A DNA stretch of 64,000 nucleotides, from assembly GCA_002633005.1 (NCBI GenBank), contig NMRA01000368.1, forward strand, positions 236,396-300,395. Direction: 5' to 3'. Position 1 is the stretch's first letter. The number at the start of each line of letters is the position of its first letter. The notes under the pieces were generated by a model. That model was not told the origin of the DNA. It did not search any database and saw nothing but the letters and a program-made list of their open reading frames with translations. Source of the DNA: Phoronis australis (taxonomy: Eukaryota > Animalia > Phoronida). Made by a program: the position numbers and the translations under genes. Positions 3,001 to 50,150 of this stretch are shown here, in pieces.

Positions 3001-3219
3001 GATAGTATTCCACCCCGAGTAGCAAAATCAACGATAAAAGAACGCTTTATGGCTTGGCGCCCTGTTATTTCTTTGCATTTTGTATACGGCACTACATCCT
3101 GATATCTACCATTTTTAACGGGTGTCTTACTTTCAGGCTCTTGCACTTGACAAGTGATGAAGCAATTGCCGGGTAATGTCAAAACATTAACCGGAACCAA
3201 AAGAACCAAAACTCTAACA

Positions 3220-3370
3220 ATGGCTGAATGCAGCCCCTCGCTGGATAACTGCAGAGTAGAAAATATAGATGAAACTCAAGAATCTAAATGCACATACACC
3301 GCTGGTGAAGAACCATCACCAGCGCCAACAAACAGTAGAAAGAAGGAGGAGGTGAATGAGGACGAAACAG
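3220..3370 (+). CDS. Coding exon 1 (MAECSPSLDN...EDET), acidic/disordered N-terminus
   Basis: ATG in acaATGg context; donor CAG|gtaacg at 3371; an acceptor ttactttcag ending at 3136 suggests an upstream non-coding exon. Confidence 0.7.
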
Positions 3371-6300
3371 GTAACGAATTGCAAGGCAGGTGATGTTATA
3401 CGAATGTTCCGTTCGTTGAGTTCCTTTACAAGAAACTGAAAATATCAATTCAATCTTGAGTACGATCATCGCCTATAAGGCGAACATATCACGTGTACAA
3501 AGTGTCATCTGACATCCCTGTCAACCTCCCTCATCCTTCTTACCTCCTTCTCACTCCCTTCTAAAACCGGGTTTTTTGGCTGTTTTGGAGATGAATAGGT
3601 CAAGAGTATTATTGTGGGCGTAAGTACATGTATGGACTGAGTAATGAGTAATTTCACTGGTTATCTGTGTGAATAGACATATGTTTGTATAAATAAATCT
3701 TTTTCAGTGAGGCGTGGAGATATGTTGGAAATGGTTTATCCCTGCACGGTTAGCAGAAGGTCATGGGTTCGAGTCCCGGTCAGGGGCAGAAATCTTTTCG
3801 GACTTACATTCATTAGGTCACGTCACGTGACCAAAAGATGGCGGGTTGAACGGGATAAACTATTTCCAACATATGCAGCCGATTTCATAAATGTGGATTA
3901 ACTTAAACCTGGTCTTCCTAAACCTGGTCTAATTTTAGACCTGACTTGCATTTCACCAACATGGTTTAAGAGTCTGAAAGCCTAGTTTTGCAGCTGGTTC
4001 AGTAAAACTGTTACTGTGTCAACCATATCACGTCTACTAGACAAAGTGTCATCTAATGTCAGAACAATTCTCGGACTCTTTACCGTCGGAGGTGTCCCCA
4101 CCTCCATCCCTCTCAACCTCCCTGCTCCTTCTTTGCTCCCCCTCTCTCCATTATGAAACCGGGTAATGTGGCTGTTTGAAAATGAGTAGGTCAACAGCAT
4201 TACGGATGGGTAAGTGTTGACTGAGTAATGAGTAATTTCACTGGTTATGTGTTGCTTTTTGAATTTGCTGGTTTGTCGGTGAAAACGTTTTTTCGATGTG
4301 AGAATCGTAAGTTAGGGCATATGTCTTGGGGGGAGGGGCAGCACCAGGATCACAAATGGGGTAGACGAGGAGATGATTTCACTGGCGGCTGTGGAAAGAT
4401 ATTGAAAATCACCAGGCATGGTATTTTGTGGACTCATTGTAAGCCTGGTACACCGATATGAAATGCCGACTTGGATATACATTTTTCATGACCCTTTATT
4501 TGTCAATCCAACATAATATTTCAGGAGAATCTGAACATGGATCGTATAGGCAAGGGCTTTCTGATGCAATCAATGGTCGAGTAATAAGTGGAGTGCATTC
4601 TCTCAGTATTTTTGACAACGTGGACAATCTCCAGATGGGGAACAACAATACTATGATTGAGTGTCAGGAGGAACCGGGAAATAGTGAGTACATGTGTTCA
4701 CAAGAAAGATTTGAATTTACAGGACACATAAGATATGACACAGTCCGAAACTTCATACAGAAAGGGTAAAAGGCAGGAATTTCTTGCTTTCATGCAACAC
4801 GAAAACGAAATATTTACTAAAAGTTATTTTAACCATCTTCTGATGGACTAATCAAAGTAAAAAATAAGGTGATTTTAGATAAAAGTCCAGCGCAATCAAT
4901 CAAATACTTTCTCGAATTCTACCAGTGAAGCCAACCCTAGACGTTCACCTGACTGAGGACAAAACCTTAATTCACAATGCACGCGGATATTTTCGTCCCT
5001 AATTCTTCCTGAAATGAATCCTGTTTGGTCTTCACTGATTAATTTTCCCATAACAGATTACTAAAAACGTTCAGCCACAGCCAATGATGTCATTTTTACG
5101 TTACATTTGGTAAACATACAATCTGTATTTTTAAATAATGATCACTTGTGCTTTGAAGATATAAGTAATCAGGTCCGTTTTCAATGTGCTTGATATTACT
5201 GAGCTTTAACTACACGTTAAACGCGAACGCGAACGTGGGTCGGAATTACTATGTCAAACCAATGACTTATACATTTCCGCGACAAGTCCTGTCACTCGTT
5301 TGGAAACAACGCGAAGACAACGAATCTCACGAAAGTGCAAAACGTGATTTTCAATTGTCCATTTATCATAAAAAGTCGTTTGATGCATGCAACTTTTTAA
5401 ACGTCTTTTGAAAAATTACCAATAGTGAAGTGTAGAGCATGATTGTGTCCCACACAGTTGGATGTCTGAAATATCATAGGAGGATCCAGAGGGTCAAGGA
5501 GATCCGAACTTCTTTTTACCCTTGATTTTGGAGAAATCAAATCTAAAAGTTTCAATCTTTTGACTTGAACCCCCTTTTCAAAAAATCTTTGATCCGACCC
5601 TCCCTTTAAAAATCCTGGATCCGCTCTTGAATATGACCTTTGTTTGGGGGCCCTTCTCCCATTGCGGATTTTTTCAGAAAATCCAAGGAAAACAGTGGCA
5701 ATAAGTGACACACATTTGCTGTCAAACACAGTAGCGTGTAGAGGTTTGATGATCTGTACTTAAATGCATGAGTCCTAGTACTAAGAAAGATGTTACATAA
5801 AGTTAAAGCTAAAGTAAACTAATCACTCCAAATTTCAAAAGGGATATGCGTAGTGACTGGAGGCTCCATCCCTGCCCGGGGCAGCAGCCCTGTCGCCCCC
5901 CTCCCCTCTTTCTGCCCTCCACTGCCAAAATATCTCTATCACGATAATATTCCAAGAAAGCAAATGAGATGAATGGCTTGATTAAACTGTAATGTTAGAG
6001 TTAAACACAAATCTTTTTTCTCAGTGCAATTTTGCTCAAAATCAGTGTTGGTATCACAAAAATGACAGCTTAAATTTTTTGATCATTTGGATGTTGATTG
6101 TTTTCACGGGGGACAGAACATAATGTTGTCACCATGGTCATATTTAGTTCCTCGAGCTGCCACCACTGTTTAACGCAGTTGCCGGTAACAGTCAACTTTA
6201 TGGATCCCTGAGGTCAGAATGACAGCATTATTCAATGGAAGTAACTGGTTCTGCTGAAATCTGGGACCAATCCGCGACCCAAAAAACCTACTAGTCAATG

Positions 6301-9300
6301 CCGTGCCACAGTGACATCACCACAGTGTCGCTCACACGGTGGCTATCATTAGGTAACCCTTCTCATGGGCGGCGCAGAACTGAAAAAAGTTGGGCTATAG
6401 CCCTCCAGTCCCTTTTTATGGGCCGCCCATGCTTTTTCAGCGGCGTTCGCGTTTGACGTGAAGCTAAAACTCACCAAAAGGAAACTCGACATTTTAGCAA
6501 ATAAAGAATCAAAGAAATTAATGACCGACGTTAGTCCAAGCAATTCAAACATTTGACTGAAAAACCTTCAGAACCTACATAACGTTGTTTTTCATTTTTT
6601 CTCAAACAGCGTGAATTCTCTTTGTATACACTATAAAAGACCTCCAATTTTCCTTTCCCGCACACACCTTATTACCTGAAGAAGAGTCTCTAAGGCAATA
6701 TCAGATACTTCTTACAACTCATCACCATTGGTTTCATGTCTCTAGAAAGTTAAGTGCGAAACTCTTGGTTGGCAAACCTTGGCTCTTTTGACCTCAGGTC
6801 ATAAGATATATCCTCCAACTGACTTTAGCTGCTGCAGGGAGCGTGCGTTGGCAACTGTTGTATCCCCTTCGCTTAAGTGTGGGTTTTGGTATTTGTACAT
6901 AATTAGTAGTGTACTCAGACGGTGGATATTCATCCAGGTGAATAAATAGATGCAAAAAAAATATATTTTACAACTTCTGTTGCCCAATTCTTAGTTCCAT
7001 TTCTGAGCAGAGAATGTTATTTGAAGTATTCACTAGAAAGCGAGAAATGAAAAGTTTACATATCAATCACGCCAAGCGATATTACGAGATCCTGACAGTA
7101 AAAGGCCCAGTTAGGTTTTCGTTCTTTGGGTAGGGAAACAAGGATAACTACAGGCTTATGTATACATATGAATGTAATTATATTTCAGATGAACTAAAAA
7201 AGGAGGACAGTAGCGGACAACCCTCCCATTGTACTACTAACACGCCTGGACGTGCGAATTCTTCTTGTGTCGCTGTTTTGCGTGACGTAAAGAACGCCCA
7301 GATAGGAAACTGTAACAAAATGATGGTTGCTGGTCAAATAAACAACGAAGACACAGAATACTTTAGGGCCCAACATGAACAAATTGGAAGTTCAAACCCA
7401 GACACGCCGTCTGGCCAGGTTTCATCAGACGGCAGCTCAGAGAGCACAATTAATGAAGGAATTAATAAAGGTAATGGCCCATGGACTGTATTTTGAAGGG
7501 TTCCAGCAAGGGCATTTCACAGTCTTATTATCGAAACACCACAGGTGTTACCTCTCAAGACCGACACTTTCAAGACATACACCTTCTTTAAATGAACAAT
7601 GTTGTCATCATATACAATTGTCAGAGCAATCTTATCCAACAGTTCATGTGACACTGGTGACATAGTCATTTGGTTTTATGTTGCAAGAGTGTAGTCACTT
7701 TTGTGCAAACTGATTTTGGCTAAAACTACTGCAAGGTCTTACAGTAGGCAGACAAGCGCCTTTGCTACATAGGGTATACCTTGTACAGAAAAGGAATCGT
7801 CTTTTGAGCAATGTCATGAACAATCAATGCAATGTTCTTCCAGAGTCACCATGGAATGTGGCTTACGTTATTTTATTATCCGTCCATTGATGCTCCGTTC
7901 CTCAAATTTCTTTGTCTTGTAAACTGGCATGTTATTCATGGTTCCATGTACTTACATCGTCTTCTGCCATCTGTAAGTTAACAAGTTAGTGGCTTATTGG
8001 TCCTGTAAAGTGTAAATTGGCCACGTTGGGTGTTGGCATATGAACAATGCGGATGGAGTGGCGTTATTGTGTGACCATAAGGAAGCCATGGTATTGCGTT
8101 TTAGGAACACTTAGACACCATAAATATCAGTGGATCTGTATTTGCCCATGTGGCTCACTTGCGCCCAAACAGACGTTCACAGAATATTTGAACGAAATTG
8201 TCCCCTTAACTTTGAGAACAACTTACTGAGTTAATGAACCCACCAAGTGGATCGCAAGTTTCACGAATCAAGTAAGGAGTAGTACGGGACATGGGCTGCA
8301 CATAATGGAGGGTTGGGGGGGGGGCTATGACCCCCTTTTATTTCAGTGCTGCGCCGCCCGCTGTCTACGCGGGGACTGGGGGGAGGGCATAACCCCAATT
8401 TTTCATTGATGCGCCGCCCTTGCTGGATACACGTGTAACTAAATGAAGTAGGAACTAAATGAAGTAGGCATCGTGTCCATAAGACCTTTGCTTTAATATC
8501 AATGATCACCGACAGAATGATAAACACAACAAATTTGCAAGTTTGCCTAAATACAACATCTTTTTGGTTTCAGGTGCCAGTGATGGTTGTTCTGCGGAGC
8601 CCGAACCAACACACGATATCAAATTAAATGAATTGGTGACAGAAGCGATCGATGGTAATTTATCAATGTACAAATGACACAGTTGACAATTACGGCGTAA
8701 ACACGTTGTAGCTTTAAAAATATGACACATAACTAATCATTATCGATAGAAATTTAAAGGTACAGGAAAAACCTATGTCACGTGGTAAATACTTTGCCGG
8801 TAGGCGTTTGAAATAACACAGTTTGACTGGAATGTAATTATGAGTTTATTGATCAAATGTTTAAATTTTCTCAAATAAATCGTAAAAATTCCCAAAGAAG
8901 GTTAATCTAATCAGTCTGTGATCACGTTTTCCCTTTCCCGTCGTTGTCATTGGATTCAACGTTACGTTTGTTGTCTGTGACGAGTTTCCTTTCTCTTGAT
9001 CAAGCCATCCATTGTTCCAAGTAGTCTTCATTTGACAGAATGCTTCGGAAAAAAACATAAAGTTCAGTCCGTCAAAGATTAGATATGTTAACATGAATTC
9101 AGTCCATCGAATTCTATATACGATGTATCCTATTGAAATTCGGTCCATCGAATTTCTGCTACAATGCATCGGATTGAAATTCAGTCCATCCAATTTCTAA
9201 CATTTGTGATATTTATGTAGCAATCCAGTGGCATCTCTTCAAGAAATATCTGCGATAACTCTATAGCTATCTGGTTGCCACTCTTCAAGAAATATACCTT

Positions 9301-12300
9301 CTTGAATAGCTAACAGAATATTCATACTGAACAGATTAAATGTGGCCGAGATAGATTAAAACATAAAACCCCAAAACTTCCTCCAAACGCTACTCGTAGT
9401 TAAAAACAATTCTCGGAACAAAATCGTATGATTCCAAATAAGAACCCATGCCGTCGCCAAACATGGTAACGGACAGCTACAGTTTTAAGTATTTTCTGAT
9501 CAATGATAACAAGATTATTGTTGTTGCATGAAATGGCTCGCCCCAAAGTTGACCAGTTCCCGTGAATTTAAAGTTACATAACTCTGCTAGCATAACATGA
9601 ACACATGGTCACAAATTTCGGTAAACAGCCAATACATTTAATTAATTACACATGCATTATTCGCATGCACATAATTAACTTTCTCATTCAAAACTTGCAT
9701 TTGAGTTTATTTGGGTAAAAATCCATGAGTGCGCATCAGTAGATATAAGTGCAGCACATGTATGAAATCTTTAATAACCGATACTGCACTCAAATCAAGA
9801 AAAATGTATGCATGTTCTCATTTCGTGATGACTGGCCAACTAATCATTTTGGTCATGGTGACAACCTGTACCTGAAGACACGTCTAAGGAAATAACGGAA
9901 ATATGATTAACGTGGAAACAAAGAAAAATGTCAAAGGTTCTGTTCTAGGGTAGCTCGTACTCTGGACGACACAATTATCTCCCTAAAAAATTATGTTTTT
10001 GCTTTTTCAGACGCTGAACATTTAGTTGACAGTAGCTCGAGATTGCTGCAGCACATTGACAGTGACTCGCAAGGTTCGTATGGAGTTGTCGTGCACACAT
10101 TATATCAATGCATAAAAATTTCTACTAACATTTTGGTGTGCAAACGCAGTTTTATTTGAAATAAAATTCGAGCACCATTTTGAACTGAAAGTAAAAAATA
10201 ATGACCAATTTGTTATTCTGAGCCGTCGGTGCGGGGAACATGGGCTGCAGGAGATACGGGTCTGAGAACAGTAAGACGACCGCCTTAAGCATCTAACAAG
10301 AATCTAATTTTTCAATACCTTAAAAAACAGAGCATGTGATGTATGAGCTACACTCTTCAAGGCTAACCTTCTAGGGAAAAGAGTTGGTTACAAGTATGTA
10401 ATGCAAATCCATATGGTTTTTGTTCCCAAATATCAATTTAAGCACATTAATGTGTCAATAAATAACATTCCTTTTATTGTTGATCAATCCTATAACATTT
10501 TCAAATTATTTGGTTGGGATGTTGCACAGAAATAGTGTCATATAGCTTCGTATAGATGTCTTTTTACATCTTCTACAAATCCATGTACTTATGAAGAACC
10601 AACAAACAAATGGTCGAAATCACACAACTTTAAAAGGGACTTACAACTAATCAAGTTACTGCTTAAGCTTGTGGGCTTCTGGTTAGAGTACGTATTGATG
10701 TGGTTAAGTTACATGTAGATAAATATTTCACTTGACATCAAATCATGTTTCAACGATTCAACGATCTTAAGCTCATTCTTGTCAATCACAGTTTTGGTAA
10801 TTCTCGACCAGTTGCTTGTATATCACGAAAAGTGGATGAGTCATGAAAGTTAAAACGTAAAGTTGGAAGTTCATTTCTTCCAGAAGACTACAAGTAGGCC
10901 TATAGAATTTGTTGCACCAGTGTTACAGTTGAAGGAATGAATCTACACATTATCTAATGCATAACGTTTTGGTGCGTCAGGTAACGATTCTCCTGCTAAA
11001 GAACACTCAAACGAAGGAAGGATGCGGACTGTGGAAAGCACGATAATAGAGCAACAAAATGCTGAGAACTCTCAGCTTCGGAAAGAAATTATTGTATTGT
11101 CACGTGGAAACTGGAAGGTGATTTTTTTAAAAAGTGGCTGCATCGAAATAACCTTTGAATGCACGAGTTTGGAAGATGTTGAAGACCTTAGAAAACAACT
11201 GTTGGATGGTCATTTAGATGGAAACCTCAAAAGAGCTTTCATGACCGAAGAAGTAACGAAATTGACCGAGGGTGTTGACTTTGACATCAGCATCGAGGTT
11301 GTCGATATACGTACAAGTAAGTGCAGTCACAACAGGATACTCGTGTAGTGCTTTAGATGGCAAATTCATGATGTAAATCGTTGGATAATTCAACTTTTCG
11401 CATTGCCATTCTCTGACAGGGCTTCATTTTCAGAAGTTTCAGAAATTGTACAATAAGCTTGTACTTGTCTGGCATGTACTGATAAAGCATTAGAACGGAA
11501 TAGAGAGTAAAGAAATCGTCTCTTGGTGTCTTAGCAGCTGTAACTCTGAGATAAAATCCTTCACGTGCTTATTGTAAACACTTCAGCACACAAGTTTGGA
11601 AATTTGTGTTCACTCTTCCGTGTTCTCCTTACTTTTGGTTTATTTAAAATAATCATGTTGCATTCCCTTTTTCAACAATATTACAATATGTCAACAAATT
11701 TTTGATGTGCCCAGTAATTTATTGCCACAGAGAGCGTGGTCTCAAAGTAAATGTTGCAAATTTCCCTGTTTTTGCCAAGTAGTGTCACCACGTGTGATGT
11801 GCTGGTGATTAACACTGGGGTGAGGGGTAAACACCAAATGTGTGAGACACTGTAGTAGCATAGAACCCCTGCTGTTAGGAAGCTCAATAAGAATCGCAAT
11901 TATGCAAATTGTGGTTGGAGTGTCCAGCTTGCAGCTTTCTTGAAATGTGAAAATTTGGTGTTCTGGCTCCAAGTATGCCACGTTTGCCTGAAACCGAGAA
12001 GGTCCGAGCTCTTGAACAAGTTGATGTTGATCTTCCCAGAATGTATTAGGCACCTCCTGACTCAGGAGTGGAATGCCATCACCCAGCTACGAATCACCAG
12101 GCTAGTAAACAGCATGCGAAGAAGATCTGTCGCTGTATTGACTGCGAGTAGATTGTCAACCCAATACTGGGAAGACCACTGTTATCTATCAGTCAGATCA
12201 TCACTATTGTCTATCAGTTGGTTGTTTAAAAAATAAAGTGATTAAGTGTTGCCTAATTGTCATTAGTTTTTAGTTCCATGGAACCAGCATTGAAATTGCT

Positions 12301-15300
12301 ATTGAAAAAGATGAATGCTTTAACTTGAATACACATTTAGCTCCAACTGAATTTGCAACATTCACTTTGAGACCAAGCCTTCTTTGGCCGGGCAGAAGAG
12401 TAACTAATCATAATAACCATTTATTGACGGAAAGTGGTATCATTGGATAGGAGAATGACTGGGGTTTCTATTGGTATGCAATATGATTTACTTAAAACAG
12501 AAATAATGAAAACACTGAAGAGTGAACACAAATTTCCGAACTTTTGGATATGTGTTTATTTTGTTGCCTATACACGTACGTGCTCGAAATTAACTCGGCT
12601 CATTGGTCATGTCATAAATTGTGCCCCACGATACAGTGAGACGAATATCTCACTTTATCTGACAAGCGTAAATTCTTGCAGCATGCAGGCGAGCTGGGTT
12701 AAGTGCTTAGCCTATTATAATTCATAATTGCATTTCCTGGCAACAACCAATCTCTCTCGCTGGAACTCCCTAACCGTGTGTACTACATTTATTTCGTTTA
12801 CTACCAACGTAAATAACAAGTCAGTCTGCATTTCGCTAGCGTTGAGTTGTAACCTGAGCTAAAGTTCACTCAAAGACGACAGGTCAGCCTGAGCAATCCT
12901 CAGCGCTTGTCCTAATTTCAGTACAATCAGCGTTGCTTTTTCGTAACGAGAGTCGTATAAAGGAGGTAGACATGCATATCGGTTTTTCATATTCTTCTAT
13001 AAAATGTGTAAAATTTATTGTTACAGGGTGTTAGATGTTTCGGAAATCCCGAGGAAACATGGAACAAGTTTTTGGGTCATCCATTGATCCAAAGAAAAAT
13101 ACCGTTTTTTTAATCCCTCTTCCAACAAATGCTGTCACGTGTTTTCAAAAACTTACCGTGGTCCCGTTCATGGCACCAATAATTACTTAAAGGTGTAAAT
13201 CTATTGTGTATGTATCTTACTGTACTTTTTGGATTTGCCAAATACGTAATATTCACTTCATAACCCTAGGAGGGCTTTGAAGTTCCTTTATATAAGATTT
13301 CAAATTGTACCATGATTTGGTTTGATCAATTCATGACAGAAAAAAATTCATCAATTGTATTGCCTCTACCGTCAAATAATGAATTGGGATCAATGCGTTC
13401 GAAGTTTTGCAAACATCACATTCTTCTTTTGGTCACCTCAGACTGAAAAGTATGCATGTAATGCTCCAGTGTTACCAGTGTGCATGGATAACTGTACAAT
13501 TGTTCATTCTGACATAGATTTTACGTGTAGTGGTGTGAAAATTGGCAATTTGTGGTTAAAACGTATGTGCTATCGTGTGGGTTGTGTAGTCAGATTCCGT
13601 TCAAATGAGCTGAACCGTTTTGTAGGGTAATGGAATTTTCAAATTTTATCAAAATGACCACTTTGCAATTTTTCGAATTAATTAAAATGTTCACGGCGAA
13701 ACGCAACTGAAGAATCAAAGCCTATGTTTATGAAAAAGTTTTTGAATTGTGAAAAAATTCTAAAATATAGTGTTAAGACAGAATTTTCTTCTACAAGTAA
13801 ATTTGTTTTAGACGGGCATAAAACAGTACTAGGATGGCAAGGGATCGTACAATTTTAAAGTAAATGAGAGCTGGCTGTATGAATTGCTTTGTGAGAATGA
13901 CTTTTTGCTGTGATGCCTTTGTACTGTTTCAGTTCACGTTGACGAAATTATGACCAAAGCAAAGGAAATAGAAGAAGGAATTTCGAGGTTGCATCAGAAA
14001 AAAGGCAATGTGATGGATCTATTGCCTAAAGCGGGAAAAATTGACTCCTGCACGGGTAAGTTCAATCTTTAGCCTGGTTATCGCTCCTCTCCAAAATTCA
14101 CAGTGGCTGTATTTCACTATTTGCTAATGATGTTCCATAATCTCACTATTGCAGTTTACCTGGAATTCACAGGAGGCTCAGTTTCTTCTCGCAGTGATTT
14201 TGTGTGTGTCCATGTATCCTCCCAGGACAATTTGTGACTCCACAGTAAAGATTTTTGAATCGATAGTATGAGTTGTTTACTCACCACACTGGTTCACAAA
14301 GGTTGCAAGAGATAAGAACTTAATTATACATGTACATATACATATATTCACTGCCTTGTACATCTAAGGTACAGTGGGGTGTTCGGTTGACTAGTACCAT
14401 CTCACCATAGCAGAGCTTAGAGAACTCGGATCCGGCGGTTAATCTGCCTCCTCTTGGTCATAGAAATGACTTGGCAAGGTAGACTGGCCCTCCCAATAAG
14501 TGCACAGGCTGCTCCCCAATCACAAAACATTTTTATACTTTTATATTTTACTCCATGTTGATGTCCTCTGGATAACAGCAACGCATTGATGAATTCACTC
14601 TACGCAAATCCTGTGCTGTTCGTTCTTATTAAATAAGCAGAAATGAAGCGAGACGTAACAGGCTAGTGATTTTCCAAATAAAGAAGTCAATCACTAAGGA
14701 ACCTGACTGTATTTTTGGCTTGAACGAAGCCGACTGCACGATGCAAGTTGGAGTCAAACTAACATTACGGTTGTGAACTATCAGCCTAGATGTAAAGTGT
14801 ATGACTTATATGCCAAGACAAAGGTCCCGGACACAAAAACAGCTGTTCCGTGCCCAAACTCAAAACAATTCCACCACGGGGGTTTGGTCTAGGACTACAC
14901 AGAGTTTCAGGACGATCGGCCACGTCGTCTCGGCGCCTTAGTGGGTACTTAAAGAATTTTGCTTACCGGGTATTAAATTCACAGGATCGCTTCTCATGGT
15001 GCCTTCAAACTTTTGTTTCCTATTTTGTATCAAGACTACTCTTAAAATTCCTTGTGAACCGCCCGGGCGTTCTGCTTATCACAGTTCTTTTCTCATGAAC
15101 ACGCCGGATTACCCGCTGCAATTGTTTTTTTGTGTACCACCATGAATCTGTTCTCTCTGTATCATTCGTACATGTAGTTGAAATTCTGAAAACTAGGGCA
15201 ACCTCCCTGGGTGTGCACGGTCGCATTCTTGCTGCCCCATATCCCACACGAATATGCATGGTGTCATTTGTCTCCGAGGGTTTTCGTTGTTATTAGTGTT

Positions 15301-18300
15301 TTTATTTTAAGTGGCAGTTATTATCACACGTGCGTAAATGTAGCCGCACCAGCAGTCGTGGTGGTGGTACTGATGCTTGTACCGTTGGTATTTTTAGATG
15401 ATCAACTTAAGCAGCTTTCGGAGAAAGAGGAGAAATTGAAGAGTAATTACAAGAAACTCACAGAAATCATCCAGAAGGAAGAAATAAAACAAAAACATGA
15501 AAGTATGTAGAAGCTATATTTGTTCCTTATACATGTATGTGTCCTTGGAGCATGTGTCAGTCTAAGAATCCTTCACAAAAAGAATTCATCCCCGAAGCTT
15601 GAAAAAACAAGCAGAATTTGAAATCATGTGACAATTACGTTTTTGTAAATGCATTTATGTCTCATTTCTGAAAAAATAGCATTGTTTTATCAAGCCATGG
15701 ATATGTTCGCATGCTCTTCAAACTGGAACAATCCGTCTCGAATGGGTGGTTAACCTGAAACTGGCGCCTCTTTTTTGAAATTCCATATAATATGCAAATC
15801 CGCAGTTGCGAGTCTGATGTCTGTTATCGATGCTTTAACATAAATTGTGGGTTAATTTTTGATAAGTTTCTACTAGATATGTGTTAAGAGTAATTGTGAA
15901 CGAGAACCGTTATGGAGGGACCCTGTTTTGTTTCCACTATATTGGCGATTTCTCGGTTAAGAGTTATATTGTTTGCAGGCCAATCTTCAGTTGATTACAG
16001 TTCCGAGAGTAACTCTAGGAAAGAAAATTTGCAGTTAATAGCACGAGTGAATCTTATTGAAAAGGGCGTTTTCGAGGAAGCAGGTTAGTATACGTTTCTT
16101 GTTAGAATGGAAATTTTCCCTTTTCAGATTGAAAAGTTACTTGCCGTATGACGCGTTTTGACACCCACGCGCCTTCTTGGGACAACTTTTTGACACATAG
16201 TTTTATCCAAAATAGTAATTTGGTACACGGTGTATTCAGTTACCAATCCTTTACACGGCGATCGTTATTCCATAACAGTGAAACTATGATACTGGTCAAT
16301 TTCAATAAAAGCAAGTGCTATCAACAGCAAATAATCAAGTTTGCATTTCAGAGCGACAACTTGAAAGGTTGGAGGCGAGGGAAGCAGAATTGGCAGCATC
16401 ATTCAGAGATCGTTCTGCGACTGGAGGATCGTCATCAGTATGTGAAATACTTCAGCAACTGGGAGATGTTTACAAAGAACGAGGTTTGCTGACTAAGTCC
16501 ACACAACACATCGCAACAGCTTCTGCATTATATAACGCGGCTTTCGTTGGTGAAAAGGAAGCTGATTCTGTTCGGAATCTTGAAATGCTGTTGAGAGAAA
16601 ACGAAACCGCTTTCTGCCGAATTTTATCCTTATCAGATGGTATGCTACCAGTTGAGTTCAGGTCAAAGGTTATTGACAGGTTAGAGACTCTTAGACTTGG
16701 CGTGACCTCTGAAAGTAAACAGTTACTGGACAACTTTTCGGAAAATCTTAAATTTGATGCACCACACGATGAAAGAACTGATATAGAAAAGGCGTTTGTG
16801 ATCGAGACCAGAAAGCTCTCTCAACGTGTAAGCGATGAAATAGCATCTTTGTGTGAAGAGTTCTTGTCAAAAAGTTGCGAAATACTGGGTCCACCACCTC
16901 ACGAATATGCTGTCATTGCCTTTGGGTCCTTGGCAAGGGGCGATATTACACCAAGTTCAAGTAGGCCTATTAAACTGGGTATTCTTTGTGAAAACGATTG
17001 CAGAGATGTCGAGTATTTTAAAAACATGATGAATCTTGTCCACGTATTTGGCCATAATGTGGGAGAAACAGATGTTAGTACTTTGAACATCAAATCACTG
17101 AACGACAATGTTACACTAGGTCGTGTAACAACTCCCGGATTCTCACTCGACAGTTCTTTTCCTCATTCGGACGCAACAGGGCAGGAAAGAAACACATTAA
17201 TTGCGACTCCCACCCAAATGACAGAGATACTTGACTATGGCTCATCGTCATCACGTGGTCATGAGTTCATTGATGTCGTTCAAATCCATGGTAGCGCTGG
17301 CGGCGATTCACTATTTAAGGAATTTGAGTACATGAAATCTAAAAAATCGGCAAGCAGAAAAGGAAATCTCTTGTCGGAAATTCAAAATTGCAAAGGAGAC
17401 ATGTTTGTCGTAAGCCTTTTTAAACCACTCTTTCGTCTGGAAAACAACAATGTGTGGGAAAGGCTTAATGAAATGAGATCCAAGGCATTTTTGTCAGACG
17501 AAGCCACGCACAATTTACAAGTGGCGTTATCGATAAGCGCGCTCTTCAGACTGCACGGACAGACTAGTGACGGGGAGCAGAATGAATGGCACACTGTAAG
17601 CCAGCTCTTATCAATTCTTGCGAGCGGTAACTCTGAACAAGGAGAAGCGCCGAAGTACAGCAAATACAACCCTGTCATTATCAGATACTGTTGTACGGCT
17701 TTGCCTTTTTTTGCCTTTTTGTGCAAACAGGGTTCTGATTTTGAGCTGGACACCGAAATAAAAAAACAGAAGTTCTGCGATGAGTTTCTATTAAAAATGG
17801 GTGGGGTACTCATATTGTCACAGGTCAGTGAAGACAAAGGTGAGCATAGTATTGAAGAGTATCTTAAATCCTTAAGTGTCGCAGGTGAGGCTAGCAGTGA
17901 TACTATGGAGGAGATAGCAACGGAATGGTTGAACCGAATAACTGGGACAGACCACAGCAATACCTCTTCCCAGGACTCGGCAGACGTTGGGTTTTCAAGT
18001 AGTTTTGACGATGCCGGGTGTCATATACTAGCGCCATGTTTGTACATTATGGGACAAATGTACAGTAAAATGGGTAAGCATCAATTGGCCTTGAATTATT
18101 ACCACAAATCACTGATTCTCTGGAAAAGACTTTATGGTGAACGCGATAGGCACGAAGTTGCTGCATGTTTCAATGGCATCGGATGTGCACACGTGAGTTT
18201 GGGCGATTACAACCAGGCCCTAAAGTTCCTTAAGGAATCCTTGGATGTGACGAAGAGAATCACTGGAAACAGAGATGACAGCAAAATTGCTCTATGCTTA

Positions 18301-19296
18301 AATAACATGGGGAACGTTTACTTGGACAGGGGAGATTACAAATCCGCTCTGGAATGTTACAATAACTCGCTGAGTATGATGAAACGACTTCCTGGAGATG
18401 AAAATCGAGCTGATATGGCGTCTTGCTTGAACAACATGGGTAACTTGTGTAAAACGTTGGGCCAGCACGATTTAGCCATGGAACACCTTGAGGAGTCGTT
18501 GAGGTTAATGCGAAGAAAGTACGGTGAAGTAGATCACCCGGAAGTTGCATCGGCATTGAACAATATTGCAAGTGTATACCTGGCTAAGGGCAAATACCAA
18601 GTTGCATTGGAATCTTTTAAAAAGGCTTTGGCAATGAGGAAGAGAATACTTGGAGATGTTGAAGATTCTGACATTGCATCATCTATGAATAACATAGGTG
18701 GTGCGTACTATGAAATGGGAAACTACAATGAAGCTTTAACATACTTAAAACAATCACTGAAAACTTTAAAGAAAATAATTGAAAAAAAAGATCACCCTGA
18801 CATCGCGCACTGTTTGAGTAACATAGGAAGTGTGTATAGTAAAACGAATCAATACGAAAAAGCTTTGGGATATTTCAAAGAATCATTGGCTATGTTGAGA
18901 AAGATCCATGGTGATGCTCATCCAGATGTTGCGTCATTTTTGAATAATATTGGGAATGTGTACAGTCGGATGGGGAATTACGGAAGCGCGCTGAAGAACT
19001 ACAAAGATGCACTGACGATCTGGCAGAAGGTCCATGGAGATAATTACCATCCTAACATGGTCACGTGCTTACAGAATATGTCGGCTATGTGTGCAGGACT
19101 CGACAAAGTTGATCTAGCCAAGCAGTATGCAAGAGACTCGCACTATGTTAGGAACAAACTTGAGTCTGGTGGACATAAGGTGGATGTTAATTCAAGACTA
19201 GCAAAGGGTAATTTGAATGCAGCTTCTTCCTCAAGTTCGTTTTTACCTTTCACAGTAAACCAAATAGGACATCCTCTAAGGTACTGGCGGTGTTAG
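3220..19296 (+). CDS. Predicted 9-exon gene (~1414 aa): 2x RHIM - TRADD-N-like - coiled coil - DUF294/GlnD-GlnE-like nucleotidyltransferase (degenerate active site) - 9 TPR. join(3220..3370,4525..4683,7189..7470,8574..8654,10011..10073,10981..11316,13933..14055,15398..15502,16352..19296)
   Basis: Each internal exon has a pyrimidine-rich AG acceptor and a GT donor; all junctions are phase 1 and the joined frame (4245 nt) has no internal stop. Domain calls are from motif recognition. Confidence 0.8.
3486..4250. repeat. Diverged direct repeat in intron 1 (copies ~3486-3670 and ~4024-4250) flanking a tRNA-like segment with a B-box (GGTTCGAGTCC, ~3766)
   Basis: Both copies share catatcacgt..caaagtgtcatct and gactgagtaatgagtaatttcactggttat. 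Confidence 0.7.
4525..4683 (+). CDS. Exon 2, contains RHIM 1 (SIFDNVDNLQMGNNNTMI)
   Basis: Acceptor aatatttcag, donor A|gtgagt; 159 nt, phase 1-1; the motif matches the RHIM pattern (I/V/L)Q(I/V/M)GxxNx(M/L). Confidence 0.8.
5476..5630. mobile_element. Short MITE-like element of the GGCGGATCCAG family
   Basis: ataggaggatccag at the left and ctggatccgctcttg at the right form imperfect inverted ends; related to the element at 31232. Confidence 0.5.
7189..7470 (+). CDS. Exon 3, contains RHIM 2 (VLRDVKNAQIGNCNKMMV)
   Basis: Acceptor tatatttcag, donor AAG|gtaatg; 282 nt, phase 1-1. Confidence 0.8.
8574..8654 (+). CDS. Exon 4, acidic linker (ASDGCSAEPEPTHDIKLNELVTEAID)
   Basis: Acceptor tttttggtttcag, donor ATG|gtaatt; 81 nt, phase 1-1, open frame. 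Confidence 0.65.
9060..9200. repeat. Degenerate ~40-bp tandem repeat (core ttcagtccatcgaatt)
   Basis: Four cores at ~9063, 9098, 9139 and 9180. Confidence 0.6.
10011..10073 (+). CDS. Exon 5, linker (AEHLVDSSSRLLQHIDSDSQ)
   Basis: Strong acceptor gtttttgctttttcag, donor AAG|gttcgt; 63 nt, phase 1-1. Confidence 0.65.
10981..11316 (+). CDS. Exon 6, TRADD-N-like domain
   Basis: GCIEITFECTSLEDVEDLRKQLLDGHLDGNLKRAFMTEEV...DFDISIEV fits the invertebrate TRADD-like N pattern (G[CS]IxxxxxCxxxxxLxxLxxxxxxGxLxxxLxxxxxT); donor A|gtaagt; 336 nt, phase 1-1. Confidence 0.75.
11575..12558 (+). mobile_element. Internally deleted Tc1/mariner transposon in intron 6
   Basis: Long imperfect TIRs (ggaaatttgtgttcactctt / aagagtgaacacaaatttcc); transposase N-terminus MPRLPETEKVRAL at 11975 lies directly before the Tc1 C-terminal motif LTQEWNAITQLRITRLVNSMRRRSVAVLTAS..STQY. 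Confidence 0.85.
13933..14055 (+). CDS. Exon 7, helical/coiled-coil segment (HVDEIMTKAKEIEEGISRLHQKKG...)
   Basis: Acceptor tgtactgtttcag, donor CGG|gtaagt; 123 nt, phase 1-1. Confidence 0.75.
15398..15502 (+). CDS. Exon 8, coiled coil (DQLKQLSEKEEKLKSNYKKLTEIIQKEEIKQKHE)
   Basis: Acceptor gtatttttag, donor AAA|gtatgt; 105 nt, phase 1-1; heptad-like charged sequence. Confidence 0.75.
16352..19296 (+). CDS. Terminal exon: TPR-like cap, DUF294-like nucleotidyltransferase and helical domain, 9 TPRs
   Basis: 993-codon ORF with acceptor tttgcatttcag at 16351; YAVIAFGSLARGDITP (polbeta-fold GS motif), HNVGET, PGFSLD and LIATP motifs; repeats of the type ASCLNNMGNxYxxxGxYxxALxxxxxSL...HPDV. Confidence 0.93.
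18031..19160 (+). repeat. Array of 9 TPR units (43-aa period, one 42-aa), kinesin-light-chain/TPR_12 type
   Basis: Directly visible in the translation, from APCLYIMGQMY to VTCLQNMSAM. Confidence 0.93.
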
Positions 19297-38088: not shown

Positions 38089-38722
38089 GTAAACCTCACT
38101 TCAATACAGTATTTTATTTATGTAGGACCTTATTCAAAAATCTATATATTTAGCAATATAACTACTAAACTATAGATTACTAGAGTTATGACTATATCAA
38201 GTGGGTCAAAAATTCAAAACTTTAGCTTTAATTTTTCAGAAAATATGTTTTGGTCAATGGATATCATGAGTTGTTAATTGACATGCAGCCACAGTATATC
38301 GCGTTTCTTTTTAAAAAGACATTGTGTGCGAAGACCAGACCGAGAGGCTAGTTGCAATGTCATGTATGTCATGGCCTGTTGCCGACACATATTGTCGAGT
38401 TGTTGGTGAGTTGAATACCACTGATGCATATGTACAGGTTATCTCTATTACGCAAGACAAATCTCTTAATCAGGTTTTCTTTTTTGTGACTTTTCAAATG
38501 ATTGAAATGTATGTTGAAATGCATCAAACTTGATCTTCCTTATACATCCACGCGTGTTTGCGTATGTGTGGGTGCTATGTGCTGTTATCCTCACCCGTTC
38601 AATAACTGCATCACAACTAAACCTAGTCTACATTTCATTTTAAGGAGCAACGAGGTACCTCAGGCTGTTCACAGCCAAGAAGCAAGTCCGCTTTTCAGCA
38701 GAATCTAGAGTGTACATGACTG

Positions 38723-41584
38723 GTGGTGGTGGTAGGAGTGATGACACTGGTGATGCTGGTGACAGTGATGGTGGTAACCTTCGATAATTGCTGTGGTAGT
38801 AATGCACCTATTAAGTATACTAACAAATCGTATGAAGGTAAATGCATTTGCATTTATGATGATGATGATGAGGATGGTAGTTCACTTACCCCTTTTCTCA
38901 GTAGTATTAGTAAAAGGGAAGCTTTATCTCAAATAGCTTATCCAGTAGTGTTACCCACACACCGAATCACAGTATGCAATATAAATCAATTTAAAGAAGT
39001 CCAAACATGCAAATTTATGCCACGACAAACTGATATTAACAGCAGTTTTGACCTTTTGAACAAATATCCTACAATGAATGAAGTTAAACTAAGATTTGGT
39101 ACCTTCCACAAACGAGATCTTCAATACTTTGGCAACTTACATAACTGTAAGGTCATTTCACGCAAAGTAAATGCAGAAAAGTTGTGGTTTAGGAATGCAT
39201 ACACTATTATCGAGCAGTCAAATAATATGAGGGCTCCAATAAACAGAAAGAACATTGAGACATTTCAACGCCAATCATTGCAGGGCAAAGACATAGACCA
39301 GGTCATGAACCACCCTGACTTAATTGTGGCAGATGCTGTGGACCTGCTTTGTAAATATTGGTTAAATAAAATTTGCAGCTTTTTTGAATTTGGATCAGGC
39401 TAACACTTTGTGTAGCCTTTTTAATTTCCATTACGATTTGGATGTATTTAAGACCAAAGTACATTACCAGTGTGGTAGTGACCTTTCCCAAAGTAAGCTT
39501 ATATTTGTTGTACATGTAGGAATCAACAGTAACAAATCTACCTTTCTAAGTGGTGAGAATGGGGAGGCTGGTAACCACTGGGCGTTACTTGTATATTCGT
39601 TTAGAAATCAAACCTTAATTTATGCAGACACAAATGGATGGGCAATACAAAATGTTCTCTCAGAGAACTTTAATGTTTTAGTCCAAAGTTTGGGTGGGTC
39701 AATTGAGTTAACTCATTATGTACACAGTCCTAATAATACACAAATGCGAAGGAAAAAATCACACATTTGTTTGCAGACTTGTTCTCATACATATCCTATC
39801 CAAACATGTGGAACAGTGTGCGGTGTGGCTGCAACTGTTGGGATGGCACTTGCTGTCTGTAATTTTGACATCTTCACTAATTTAGCTTATGGTCAAATGG
39901 TCTCCTCACTGCACTATCTCAGAAACATAAGCAGTCATCCTTCGTTTTTGAGATTGGTTTTGATAGACTGGTTGGTTTCCAAAAAAGTTGACCATGAACA
40001 AATTAGGGTAAATGATAATGAAGTAGAGGAGAATCATGGCAATCAAACTTCGGGTCAAAATTATTCTCTATAGTCCCATAGTAGTCTTATACTTGAGACG
40101 GTAATTGCACAAACACCAGAAACTGCCAGCTCTGACATGTCTAAAATGACACACAATTTCACTTATCGGCTTACTGAACTTGATAAGGAGACTAGACATT
40201 CAAAACCAAATGGTGAACATGAACATCCTGTCGATATGAATCATCTGGCAAACAACACTGCTGAACAGAAAAAGAGTTGCATTGCAAAAAACAAACTCAA
40301 GTTAACAAAAAAACAACTGGCACCAAGTAGCCATAGTATAGGAAATGATGAGTCTGTATTTCCTCAAGTTAATTCTGACAATGTCAACAGTGACAAATAA
40401 CAATAATCACAATAATACCATCACCAACAGCAGCCCTGCTCTTACTAAGGACACCATAGATTTTTCTAGTATATTACCATTTGTTAATGGAAGGTCAAAA
40501 ATTTACGGAGATGGTGTTTTTTACAACTCTGTTTAGTCTTAAGGAGTGGTTCCAAAATTCAAAAGAAGTTTAAAAAGTCAAAGGAATGTTTCCGGACTTT
40601 ATTAACAGTTGCGAGTGTGCTTATTGGATTCATAACAAGCAAGACCAAAACAGTGCAAAATTGGTAAATAGAATTGAAAATGTAGATTTTTCTAATATTT
40701 CTTCTTTCATTTCCAATAAGACAAAGATTTACAGAGATGGTAATTTTATGCGACTCTTTTTAGTTTTAAACAATGGTGCACACCTTTCCAAGAGATTTGC
40801 TGGCTCTAATGGTGATACATACAGGACAATACAAAATTTCATCAACAGTAACGACTGCATTGATTGGATTAATGAAAATCAGCAACAGGTGGAAATAAGA
40901 GATGACATTATTGATGCCAGTTTGGTATCAACTTTTATTGCTTCACCGCCGTCACTCTCTTATGATCCATAGTCACACTTACCACAGATACATCTAAAAT
41001 TGTTGCTAAACAATGGCAAAATTTGCAGTCGGTATTTAACTTGCACAAACCAAGGATTGGATGATTGCAGCAGTGTGCAAAAGATTCAGGACTATGTTAA
41101 CAGCAGACATTGCCAGTATTGGTTGGCTTCAGCTTCAGCAGAATTTCAAAAAAATAGGTCACTACAGGTTCGCGTTGGTTCAGATGCACTAAATTACATT
41201 GAAGAACTTCCATTTTCTGTGAATCAGGAATTAGTTATTTCAGAGCCACTCTACACGTCTTAGGAGTACCTCAAAGGGACGTCATGTGTGTCAGTAACCA
41301 AGTATCCTAACTGGGGGAAAACAAATAGACTGGACCAAAAATTTATTTATACAGGGAACTCTGTAAACAAGAACATTATCCATTGGAACTTAACATGCAC
41401 TTCAAGCACAAATGGATGTAGAAGCAGGTATGGTGAACTTCTTTGTAACATCAGACAGAACATAACAGATGATAAATGTCCCATCTGTCACGCTGATTTA
41501 AGCAGTAACAAAGTGTGTGGCAACTGCAATAGAAAACATTCTAGCCAGTGTAGTCCAGTCATTCTACGGATAACCCGGGAATAA
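38723..41584 (+). pseudogene. Long frameshifted coding region: Ulp1/SENP (clan CE)-type cysteine protease, 3x ~70-aa repeat and Cys-rich region; probably continues the SGNH gene and is transposon-borne
   Basis: Chain of same-strand ORFs; NHWALLVY (His, 39576), LIYADTNG (Asp) and PIQTCGTVCGV (Gln 39801, Cys 39819); CPIC...CGNC near 41480-41530. Confidence 0.7.
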
Positions 41585-41614
41585 TTGCAACAGAAGGTTT
41601 TATTGCATAAATCG

Positions 41615-44600
41615 TATCCTCTCACATCCCTTAGTGTGAGAAAAAAGTCTGCCGGAATCGGAGTGGCGGAAGTTGGTTTTTCAAGATGGCGGAAAAAATG
41701 GCCGCCATATTTGCAATGACCATTATAACTCGAGAGTGAAATGTGGTAGAGTAAAAATTCAAAAAGGTTTACATATCTTTTGTGGGTCAACAACTCCATT
41801 GAAAATAATTTTGCATGGCTGCGGTGACACCGTCCGCCATTTTCCAAGATGGCCGCCAAAACTGCTTCGAGTTGCACAATTGGCATCAACAAATTAGTGC
41901 GTCGTCTTCATTTAAACATAGCCTCATAGGTTTTCTGGGTCGAATAATCCATTGAGACTTATTGCATTTGGCTCTAATGATAACTTTCGCTATTTTCCAA
42001 GATGGCCACCAAATAGTTGCTTGGTGTAATAACTTCAGATTCTAGAAACACGCCACCTTCACAGATTTCATATCCTGAGTTTCATAGGTCAACATGTCCA
42101 TTAAAATTATTTTTTTTGTCGTGCTCTGATTTATACGACTACCATTTTCAAGATTGTTAAACAAATAATAACTTATTTGGGTGAAAAGCATCAGGTTCGC
42201 CTGGACTGAAGGCTCAATGTCTGGAAAATATGTGCTGTATCGAAAATAATTATCTGCAATTAATTTAGTAATCTACTATCCACACCAATTAACCGTCTGT
42301 GTCACCTCCAGTTAGCTGTAAATATTAGTGAATACAGCAGCAGTTGAGACATGAGAACGGTTTAACAAGGTCTGTTTAGCAAATTAAACAGTTTATAAGC
42401 GCTTGTTCAGCTTCCACTAGGCTTCTGTCTAATGATGTTACATGTGCGTTCGAAGCAGTAATTCTCAGTCTGTGATCAAAATCTATACACAATCAACAAG
42501 TATTTACACAACTAATGTTTTTCAACTGAGAATGAATTGCTGCAGCTTATATGACTGTATTCTCCGCATGCAACCGAGCACGGCAATCCTAACTTCTTGC
42601 GAGTATATCTCTTGGAACTGCGGTTGGTCTTGCACGAGCATCTTGCTACTTTCAACAGGTTCTCTGGTGCTGTTGGCTGGTCCATCGTCGTGGGAATGAA
42701 TTTTCCACTTGCCAGCATCCATCCCCAATACAGCGAGTCTAGGCTATTGCCACGGAAACTTGACCACTCTTTTTCTTGATAATATGTCCCGGCAGAATGG
42801 AATTTAGCTACTGAAGAAAGTTGGTGGTAATGACTATTTTGACTGTGGCTAGTCTGACACCTCATCCACAAATCGCTTGTATCGCAAGCCATCTAAATTT
42901 CCAGAGCCAGTACCGCCATAAAGCATAGACAAAACTCTTCCCAGCTTCAAATATGTCTTGCTTCAGCTTCATGGGTCTTGTGGGTACTCCAGCGTTTTCG
43001 CAGAATTCTCAATCACACAGTTTCTTGAATGGGAGAGCCTTTGCTAATACCGAACAGGCGTAATGTTTTATTGCAACCACCTATTGCATGCGCAAATGGC
43101 AAAACTGTGCAAGTTTCGGCACCAAGAGACAACTGTAGTTTCTTGATGTCACAGACTCTCCTCTTGAGCATTGGAAATTGTTGTGAAGTAGCATGGTAAC
43201 GCAAAAGAGCCAACAAGTCTGTCAGTGTATCGTCTGCAATAAGGGTAGTTGGACCTTGTGCTGCATTCTCTACTGATGCTTCTACAATTAAAACCTCTGT
43301 ATCACCTTGAACTTTTACCACTGTGAAACCAGCATTTCCTAGCAAACTTGACAAAAAGTGAATGAATCATTGTTTGTTTTTGCTCTTTGCCAAAAATGTT
43401 CCTTCTTTGACTTGATCACCATGTCACCATTGAAGTGAACTTCAGTTCCAACCACCCCACCCAGTCTTCGAAAATGGGAGTCACCTTTAGTTGATGGTCC
43501 ATCTCAGTAACCATCAAAAACAACAGTAGGCTGGGTGCTCTTGCTGAAGTAATCCACATAAGGTCTACCAAACGACTGAAACGTTGCACCTCTAGGCCAT
43601 GGAATACGGTGATGGAGAGAACCCCCTTCGATGCATGCATAACCGTGTTGTCTGGAAATTGAAATCCTCAGGTAGTCCCCCACTGGACTAGAGCGCATCA
43701 GCTAATATTGCTTTATTTGCACCTGTGGGAAGACCAGATGTATCAAAAAAGAGCCGGGGAACCAACACACAGCTCAAACTTCAAAAGGCACGATGAACTT
43801 TCACTGTTGTCTTTTGCAGTTGTCAGGATTTGCTGAAATAGCAGTCGTGGATCCACTTCTGCAAAATTACTATTACCAACATGAACTGATTGACTTGTCA
43901 TTGTCACAACCTTGTCTTTCTTTCTGAATGTGAAGTCTTTCACACTTGACTCCTCCATAGTCAAGTGAATCGCCTTCCCCACTTCTTTGGCATTTTTGGC
44001 ATTGACGCGTGTGCCTGAAGTCACACCAGTGGCTATGTTCTGTAGTGTTTCTCTTTAAAATGGGTTTCTGTTGCGGAGGAATTCAACAAGGCTGAGGATG
44101 TCTTTGCCATCCCACGACTGTCTAGCCTGGGTACATTCTTTATGATGCTGGCAGCCACGGTGCACACTGCGCATCTCCCATTTTGGAACCTTTATTAAAC
44201 CTCCTGTTGCTTTAATACTTTTCATGAGCGTTTGTTCAATTACAAGATCATATGACAAGCCTGCCCAGAATCTGTCACTTTGTCTTAGGGCTTGTAATGG
44301 CCGTAGACGTCTGGGCGGGTGCCTTTGAGTTGCTGCATCTGCTGCAAGTGTATGTATGCAGATTTTGCATAAGAGTTGTGACCATGCAGCTGCAAAATAA
44401 GGCAGCATTTCAAAAATTGCTTTTAGGCGGAACTCCCAATCTGACGTTATTTCTGCTCTTAAGAAATTCAAAGGATGTCAAGCACCTTCATATACTGTTG
44501 TCAAAGACTGGTGATTCGACTTTGCGAGGACAAGTCTGATTTATGTGCTTCGACTTTTATGGATACCTACAAGACACTCCGACGAGCATACATCACCGCG

Positions 44601-48657: not shown

Positions 48658-49479
48658 TTCATTGTCACTTTCTGTAACTGACTGTATCTGTGCTTCATTA
48701 CTTGTTGCTGGGCCTAGCTAGGTGGCCACTGTATTATCACTGTAGGATAACCGGGAAAACAGATTATGCATTGTCTGCATATACATGTACATGTACAGAT
48801 GGTTTACCAGGCGCACACCCAGGGGAGCTCGGGGGGCTCCAAGTGCAACCTAGCCTGACAGAAATACACTGTACCTATTATGCAGTGTGTTCTGATAGAG
48901 CGGCATGGAATGCAAACTTCAATCTCGCTGCAGAGGTTGCGCCGCGCATGCGTAGCATTTGTTTGTATTCGGTTGTTTTTGTGTTGGTTATTGCTATTGA
49001 ATTTACTGTCACTAAAATTTGTGCAACTCCGCCGCTTTTCAACTGAACTGCAAACTAGTCATATCATTTAGAAAGCAATTAATCAGTTCTTGATGGTGTA
49101 TGATTATAGCAGAAGCAAACGATAAAAAATTTACCTCATAAATAATCTTCCTTTCGCATATCTGACAGGTTTAATTTTTTAATTCTAAAAACCAAGTGTT
49201 ACAAAAGTGCTTATAATAACATGATGTAATAGTAACATAAGAAAGGAAATGAATCAGAGAGGTTATATAAAGGCAAATAATTGCATTGATTCAAAAGATT
49301 TTTACCCTATCAAGACAAAGGTTTTAGAATATGGATCGTTCACAGTTGCTGTGAAGAATTTAGTGAGGCACTCATTCAAAATTATACATCTTTATATAAT
49401 AATTGGACCTTCGGTGCCGTTGATACATTTTTTAATTAAAAAATCAGGATCCAGTGACATTTGGAAAAATAATTGCTAC

Positions 49480-50150
49480 AACTACCTACTACACGCTTCA
49501 ACGTTCCACTGCATTCAATGGGAAGAATTTATCACGAACACGATCGTCCACAAGTTGCGTCATGCTTAACTTGCATCGGATGTGCACACTTTGAAATAAA
49601 CATGCAATCACATATACTGGCCTTGAAGTTCTACCTAGCCTCCTTCAATATGAGGAAGAGGGTGATCAGCATTAGAGATGACAGCAATGTTGCTTCATGC
49701 TTAATTAACATAGGTGAATGCGTACTTGCTAAAAACAGATTACGGCTCCATCCTGGAAAGTTATGCGGATTCGCTGACTATGATGAAACGACTTCATAGA
49801 GACACACGCACGCTTGACCAACATGGGCAACGTACCACAAGATGAATTAACATGAATTGGCCTTAGAATGTCATCAAGAATCGGAAGAAAAGGGTTCTTG
49901 GACAATGATGTTTCGTCGTTATATTGCATAGACACATTGTCTGTCGATATCAAGAAACGGGCAAACTTCAGTCAATATTTCAATCATTTGAAGAGGATAT
50001 GACGAACAAGGTGTTTGGAGTTGCACAGCTGATGGCAGTGAGATTGCAATGCTGTTGAATAACCTTGGAGGTGGGTGTTGTTTATGGACAAGCTTGGAGA
50101 AGCTTTGACGGTGTATCTTAAAAATCATTTGAAATAGCAAAAAGATTAAA
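49480..50150 (+). pseudogene. Decayed paralog of the TPR array of the 3220-19296 gene
   Basis: Nucleotide blocks shared with 18130-18500 (gcatcggatgtgcacac, agagatgacagcaa, tcgctga.tatgatgaaacgacttc, aacatggg.aac); HDRPQVASCLTCIGCAH aligns to RDRHEVAACFNGIGCAH; frameshifts and deletions. Confidence 0.88.

Follow-up and report, generated by a model that had tools for sequence, protein, structure and literature searches.

A predicted gene of Phoronis australis in which RHIM-like motifs precede a TRADD-N-like domain and a nucleotidyltransferase-TPR region

A ten-exon gene of 1,470 codons was predicted from splice sites and reading phase on the plus strand of a 64,000-nucleotide stretch of Phoronis australis DNA (assembly GCA_002633005.1, contig NMRA01000368.1, positions 236,396 to 300,395 of the forward strand; hereafter the window, with coordinates counted from its first letter). 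The gene encloses two short motifs that a first-pass annotation of the same DNA had called RHIMs, and it reaches far past the two-motif region. In the product, two RHIM-like motifs are followed by a TRADD-N-like domain, a nucleotidyltransferase region of the DUF294 type without its catalytic acids, and TPR repeats. With somewhat more confidence than doubt, the product is regarded as an intracellular immune receptor-adaptor in which the RHIM-like pair occupies the slot of a CARD or death domain, motif 1 being likely to nucleate an amyloid signaling polymer and motif 2 to act as a weaker helper. This reading was adopted because amphioxus proteins of the same layout carry recognizable RHIM motifs in that slot. 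The term RHIM-like is used because both motifs fail the strict tetrad consensus and the Pfam RHIM model; the predicted product is RHIM-like and not a strict member of the RHIM family.

Motif 1 (4605–4658; core LQMG at 4629–4640, residue 107) and motif 2 (7275–7328; core AQIG at 7296–7307, residue 161) were found exactly where the first-pass annotation had placed them, as was a proposed third core (EQIGSSN, 7377–7397, with its core at 7377–7388), and the claim that each motif lies on its own exon agreed with predicted AG/GT-bounded, phase 1-1 exons at 4525–4683 (exon 2) and 7189–7470 (exon 3, which also holds the third core). The RIPK3 peptide quoted for comparison in that annotation likewise agreed with a PDB RIPK3 chain. 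Candidate sites were scored with a position-specific scoring matrix (PSSM) built from 20 amphioxus motifs with the window sequence excluded; a regular-expression match in one protein (P0164), which fell inside an ankyrin repeat, had been dropped from the training set. With this matrix, motif 1 was the top site of the window in six frames (score 19.9, runner-up 8.6), a score that none of 500 window shuffles reached and that falls inside the range of 15.1–38.3 obtained for the training motifs by leave-one-cluster-out scoring. With an earlier matrix from 10 motifs, 6 of 300 shuffles reached motif 1. On a hidden Markov model (HMM), motif 1 scored 13.2 bits, a value attained in 1 of 2000 shuffles of the exon. 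Motif 1 is convincing as a predicted RHIM-like motif of good quality, with a likeness beyond that given by chance.

Only this part of the claim of two RHIMs stood, motif 2 being degenerate and not the equal of motif 1. Motif 2, with its core 54 residues downstream of the first, shared 7 of 19 residues with motif 1, which made it the best of 1247 segments in the other exons scanned, and its BLOSUM score against motif 1 was 35 compared with 20 for the runner-up and was reached by 10 of 20,000 exon 3 shuffles; a BLASTP comparison of exon 2 with exon 3 did not detect this likeness. To judge from these scores, motif 2 is a worn internal duplicate that is significant as a copy of motif 1 and not as a RHIM alone. 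The third core, which the annotation had described as weak, was rejected as a RHIM with a PSSM score of -9.1.

Relatives of the predicted protein, 150 of which were listed, were fetched with the enzyme region alone, and those with names were from amphioxus in nine of ten cases looked up, plus an annelid. A TRADD-N match was noted in three of the 150, namely P0025 and P0044, each with two RHIM-like motifs ahead of it, and P0033, with a CARD; the strict RHIM pattern was found in none of the 147 relatives that lacked TRADD-N. Matches to a looser pattern in P0012, P0018 and P0059 were not counted, because two were located among the C-terminal repeats and the third was without the upstream pattern. 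P0025 (XP_035692194.1) and P0044 (XP_078621836.1) share with the window protein the order RHIM, RHIM, TRADD-N, DUF294 nucleotidyltransferase, TPR, but are only about 30% identical to it, have canonical tetrads at all but one of their four motifs, keep the enzyme's acidic residues (SDLE and SELE) and have a shorter spacer to TRADD-N. P0044 differs further by an added IRF DNA-binding domain, which lies at residues 601–705 between its RHIM-TRADD-N cassette and its nucleotidyltransferase-TPR region.

When the RHIM-TRADD-N cassette was itself used as the query, 11 amphioxus proteins were found in all, the query being one that favored such matches. A tandem RHIM pair preceded TRADD-N in nine of these, RHIM-TRADD-N occurred twice in one, and one was without a RHIM. 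The Pfam RHIM cut-off was passed by 4 of the 11 proteins, with three more matching below it, and the spacing between cores was 40–74 residues in the nine amphioxus pairs, compared with 54 in the window protein. Canonical tetrads occupy the same slot in amphioxus proteins of like layout, and the placing of the window motifs in an immune-type protein was upheld. In the PDB, a profile of the cassette matched only three RIPK3 RHIM chains (E 0.05–0.07). The C-terminal partners of the cassette, in proteins that are automatic gene models and in some cases possibly misjoined, were nucleotidyltransferase-TPR (in one case with IRF), SH2, a DDX58-like helicase, ankyrin, a death domain, and a death domain with SRCR and fibrinogen. 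The helicase fusion, with a RHIM pair and TRADD-N, was seen in P0161; RIG-I carries CARDs in the corresponding position. A tentative generalization, which we hold with less than even confidence, is that tandem RHIM plus TRADD-N forms a mobile amyloid-signaling module of marine invertebrates, interchangeable with CARD/DED plus TRADD-N, and that exon shuffling, made possible by symmetric phase-1 exons, has joined it to sensors of many kinds (nucleotidyltransferase-TPR, RIG-I-like helicase, SH2, ankyrin, death domain). In the window gene, on this view, amyloid nucleation would be linked to a dead nucleotidyltransferase that serves as a switch operated by ligand binding.

Two features of the TRADD-N superfamily, a Gly-Ser/Cys turn and profile similarity, were found in exon 6 (10981–11316), from which a TRADD-N-like domain is predicted. 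The exon had an ESM Atlas score of 0.94 to PF20694 TRADD-like_N clusters and an E value of 3.6e-6 on an HMM to which only amphioxus sequences had contributed, and its turn motif was seen in the alignment as Gly-Cys at residues 319–320 (position 11136). A Pfam scan of exon 6 gave no direct TRADD-like_N match. Structure models of the exon, which were of low confidence (pLDDT 49 and 57), comprised three strands followed by helices, and Foldseek searches with these models yielded no matches. Binding of TRADD-N to TRAF2 by way of the turn motif is described as a conserved interface in passages of Kaur et al. (2021, PMC8195603). An alternative donor for exon 6 was listed at 11310 and was not used in the model.

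Exon 10 (16352–19296) comprises 980 codons to the stop and encodes the nucleotidyltransferase-like region followed by the TPR array. Homology of this exon to the DUF294/GlnD type was evident from phmmer matches to 574 clusters (E up to 0.001) for its first 560 residues and from the presence of DUF294 in all 26 top relatives scanned. DUF294 was not among the families listed in a Pfam scan of six of the ten exons, a scan in which the best 25 of 45 families were listed for exon 10 and beside which the other four exons are of 20–34 residues each. The family signature (Gly-Ser plus two acids, SD-x-E) occurred in 137 of the 150 relatives listed; in the window copy (16921–16980) Gly-Ser is kept and both acidic residues are replaced, and the region is therefore predicted to be inactive, i.e., a pseudo-enzyme. 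The TPR array (approximately 18150–19050) contained eight TPR_10 or TPR_1 stretches in the Pfam scan. A word-index search with the enzyme region yielded a single bacterial protein, so that a close relative or orthologue was lacking for comparison. Elsewhere in the window, a frameshifted plus-strand fragment at 49479–49818 resembled the TPR array of the gene (39–53% identity, E 3e-17) and is probably a broken duplicate.

A mechanism may be proposed by analogy with RIPK1/RIPK3, ZBP1, TRADD-TRAF2 and fungal NWD2/HET-s. A ligand would be sensed, or the protein kept closed, by the TPR array together with the nucleotidyltransferase-like region, itself predicted to be without catalytic activity, and activation would cluster the protein, whereupon the clustered motifs would seed a cross-beta polymer and recruit another RHIM protein, e.g., a RIPK1-like kinase. 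The TRADD-N-like domain would then recruit TRAF, leading mainly to NF-kB-type signaling, with cell death as a possible outcome. The TRADD-N domain makes an NF-kB output more likely than necroptosis, as does the proposal, in passages of PMC12119088, that activation of NF-kB was the ancestral function of RIPK1/3. The same passages report that ZBP1 is an innovation of tetrapods and give LQIG as a naturally occurring tetrad of RIPK3; with the exception of TQIG and VQSG, most variants tested in human RIPK3 retained NF-kB activity, and the loss of activity with TQIG makes AQIG doubtful. An Ala-initial tetrad (ATIG) is found in the third RHIM of ZBP1, which contributes partly, according to a portion of bioRxiv 10.1101/2025.06.06.658343.

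Expression was assessed with RNA reads from four runs that carried the same species label; roughly one fifth of the raw data was read per run, and matches were accepted at 80% likeness. Motif 1 was covered by 10–14 sense-strand reads in each of two runs, while in one run marginal read cover was seen at the 5' end of exon 3. The only junctions supported by RNA were those that join exons 8, 9 and 10, and sense reads were also noted on exon 10; a copy about 85–90% alike is spliced and transcribed. At the listed positions of exon 2, every covering read had the other letter, which indicates that the source is a diverged allele, paralogue or lineage, and not demonstrably the window copy. In the core of the expressed copy, Met was changed to Ile (giving LQIG) and the Gly codon carried a silent change; other listed core residues were kept. 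The listed differences, beyond which more may exist, are compatible with a kept core.

A number of these and further results weigh against the reading of the protein as an amyloid-signaling receptor. Both LQMG and AQIG miss the tetrad consensus (V/I)-Q-(V/I/L/C)-G given in the consulted part of PMC9444067, a departure that the first-pass annotation had correctly recognized, and a Pfam RHIM scan, one form of the HMM scan by which that annotation proposed to check its claim, was negative, no match to PF12721 being found for exon 2 or exon 3 at E up to 10. The PSSM score of motif 2 (6.5) was below that of every left-out training motif and was reached by 466 of 500 window shuffles and 937 of 20,000 N-terminal shuffles, its HMM score (0.5 bits) was reached by 104 of 2000 shuffles (about 5%), and a search of the ESM Atlas with motif 2 gave no usable match. 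Searches of the PDB with each peptide alone were also without a match, and the PDB matches of the cassette profile were borderline. The RHIM patterns used on the 150 relatives were written post hoc, after these had been viewed, and the three TRADD-N-positive relatives had served as seeds of the TRADD-N HMM, so that divergent cases may be missed. The gap between the second core and TRADD-N is 158 residues in the window protein compared with 65–73 in relatives. At the level of transcripts, motif 2 had no covering reads in any of the four runs, so that the occurrence of the motif exons in RNA held for motif 1, by way of the diverged copy, and did not hold for motif 2, and no reads spanned the junction of exons 2 and 3 or linked the motifs to exon 6. 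Almost no reads were 99% alike, and transcription of the exact window copy is therefore unproven. Finally, nine of the ten listed differences in exon 2 change the amino acid, a pattern that shows no purifying selection, and the expressed variant scored lower on the HMM (10.8 bits) than the window copy did.

The same departures from consensus could be taken to mean that the protein is a decoy or brake which, through its altered tetrads and dead enzyme region, joins RHIM polymers and caps or dampens them rather than initiating them. Inhibitory RHIM proteins are known, including Pirk/Rudra (in passages of PMC4262963) and viral M45 and ICP6 (in a portion of bioRxiv 10.1101/2025.06.06.658343), and the inactive TQIG tetrad of RIPK3 cited above is in keeping with such a role, as are two non-canonical cores and the loss of both catalytic acids. 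However, the TRADD-N turn motif is intact and the TPR array is full, both of which suit a receptor; the expressed copy has an LQIG core, and MQVG and LQFG cores occur in an amphioxus relative, which indicates that some drift at tetrad positions is normal. A decoy is unlikely. The lost catalytic motif, the drift of motif 2 and the predominance of non-synonymous differences in exon 2, together with the unproven transcription of the exact copy and the broken TPR fragment nearby, would also be expected of a decaying duplicate, i.e., a once-functional RHIM-TRADD-N-nucleotidyltransferase-TPR gene under relaxed selection in which the motifs are relics. Decay is improbable, since the frame is unbroken for 1,470 codons over ten exons whose splice sites are canonical and whose phases agree, and since the copy about 85–90% alike is spliced and transcribed.

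The first-pass annotation had itself likened the motifs to those of ZBP1 and envisaged an output through a necroptosis- or Imd-like pathway. The analogy held with respect to the tandem repeats only, these lying in a polar region, and the match of the cassette profile to RIPK3 RHIM chains is what a trigger of a RIPK3/MLKL-like or Imd-like route would lead one to expect. Such a trigger is nevertheless very unlikely to be the main output, since no Z-alpha domain was listed in the six exons scanned with Pfam (for exon 10, among the best 25 of 45 families), the protein is of a TRADD-N/pseudo-nucleotidyltransferase/TPR type, the neighboring TRADD-N points to TRAF, and both the reported tetrapod origin of ZBP1 and the proposed NF-kB ancestry of RIPK1/3 (PMC12119088, in part) are at odds with it. 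Short Asn/Gly-rich beta repeats of a non-amyloid nature might, finally, resemble RHIMs by coincidence, as could be argued from the failure of the window's own peptides to match Pfam or the PDB and from the chance-level scores of motif 2. Coincidence is hard to credit when motif 1 outscores all 500 window shuffles and occupies the slot of Pfam-positive RHIMs in relatives that share the downstream domain.

The remainder of the gene model was as follows, all exons being on the plus strand. The ten coding exons run from an ATG at 3157 to a stop at 19296 with every exon end at AG/GT, every intron in phase 1 and the frame open throughout. Exon 1 (3137–3370), which is predicted to be coding, polar and probably disordered, contains an in-frame stop at 3148 followed by the first in-frame ATG. 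Exons 1–5 are polar in composition, and polar residues, judged by composition only, make up 65–76% of exons 1–3 compared with 62% of exon 6, which is predicted to be folded. Exon 4 (8574–8654) and exon 5 (10011–10073) are linkers predicted from splice sites and phase only. Exon 7 (13933–14055) is probably helical, as judged from its sequence, and exon 8 (15398–15502) is probably helical or coiled-coil; the spliced reads mentioned above join exon 8 to exon 9 (15979–16083) and exon 9 to exon 10.

Repeats and fragments of other genes were also noted in the window. An intronic repeat at 3690–3990 had heavy RNA-read cover on both strands and tRNA-like flanks in loose read ends; ARAGORN found no tRNA in it, and it is probably a short interspersed nuclear element. 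Intron 6 carries an open reading frame (ORF) fragment at 11859–12233 (plus strand) that is reminiscent of the C-terminus of a Tc1-type transposase. A series of broken ORFs occurs at 38720–41907 (plus strand), within which the spacing of His, Asp, Gln and Cys at 39366–40070 (plus strand) is suggestive of a Ulp1-type cysteine protease. Several ORF fragments at 43016–44477 (minus strand) appeared by eye to belong to one interrupted transposon-type gene, and others at 55079–55588 (minus strand) are reminiscent of a Penelope-like retroelement at its GIY-YIG end.

The mammalian set of RHIM proteins numbers four. If the module reading is true, some invertebrates run combinatorial amyloid-signaling receptors in which a RHIM polymer is linked directly to a TRAF-binding domain, and a large, apparently unstudied animal nucleotidyltransferase-TPR family (the 574 clusters noted above) is pointed to as one of immune receptors. 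The natural variants LQMG, AQIG, LQIG, MQFG and LQFG would serve as tests of drift in the RHIM core and of whether the ancestral output was NF-kB or death. The surprise is limited by prior knowledge of the motif class and of its occurrence in amphioxus.

Tandem RHIMs of invertebrates and expansions of TRADD-N have each been published; their pairing was not found in the literature searched, which included passages of PMC3710099 and beyond which subscription papers, one figure and one supplement could hold it, and a study of the animal nucleotidyltransferase-TPR family was not found in the same literature. Immune-type proteins of Branchiostoma (amphioxus) have two or three RHIMs in unfolded regions, in slots usual for CARD-like domains (Kajava et al., 2014, PMC4262963, in part). 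The cores of the window protein are non-canonical, unlike those proteins, for which the passages at hand name no TPR, TRADD-N or nucleotidyltransferase, although the "other domains" of Figure 1 in that paper might include these. The invertebrate TRADD-N expansions described in parts of Kaur et al. (2021, PMC8195603), the DEDD2 and NCOA6 clades, likewise combine a constant adaptor and TRADD-N with variable C-termini, including TTC28-like TPRs, but there the constant partner belongs to the death-fold domains and is usually a DED, where the window protein has RHIM-like motifs; the word RHIM did not occur in the main text of that paper or in the supplements searched (12 of 13, one partial). ZBP1, with its RHIM-A, B and C, resembles the window protein in having several RHIMs per chain, of which one is strong and the others are accessory and one is Ala-initial; it differs by its Z-alpha domains and sensor region and is homologous only in the motif. 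In fungal NWD2/HET-s, the central domain is a NACHT ATPase, as opposed to the pseudo-nucleotidyltransferase of the window protein, for which no neighboring effector gene was seen in the window. The overall plan of NWD2/HET-s, as described in passages of PMC4262963, is otherwise similar, with an N-terminal amyloid motif, a central nucleotide-related domain and C-terminal repeats.

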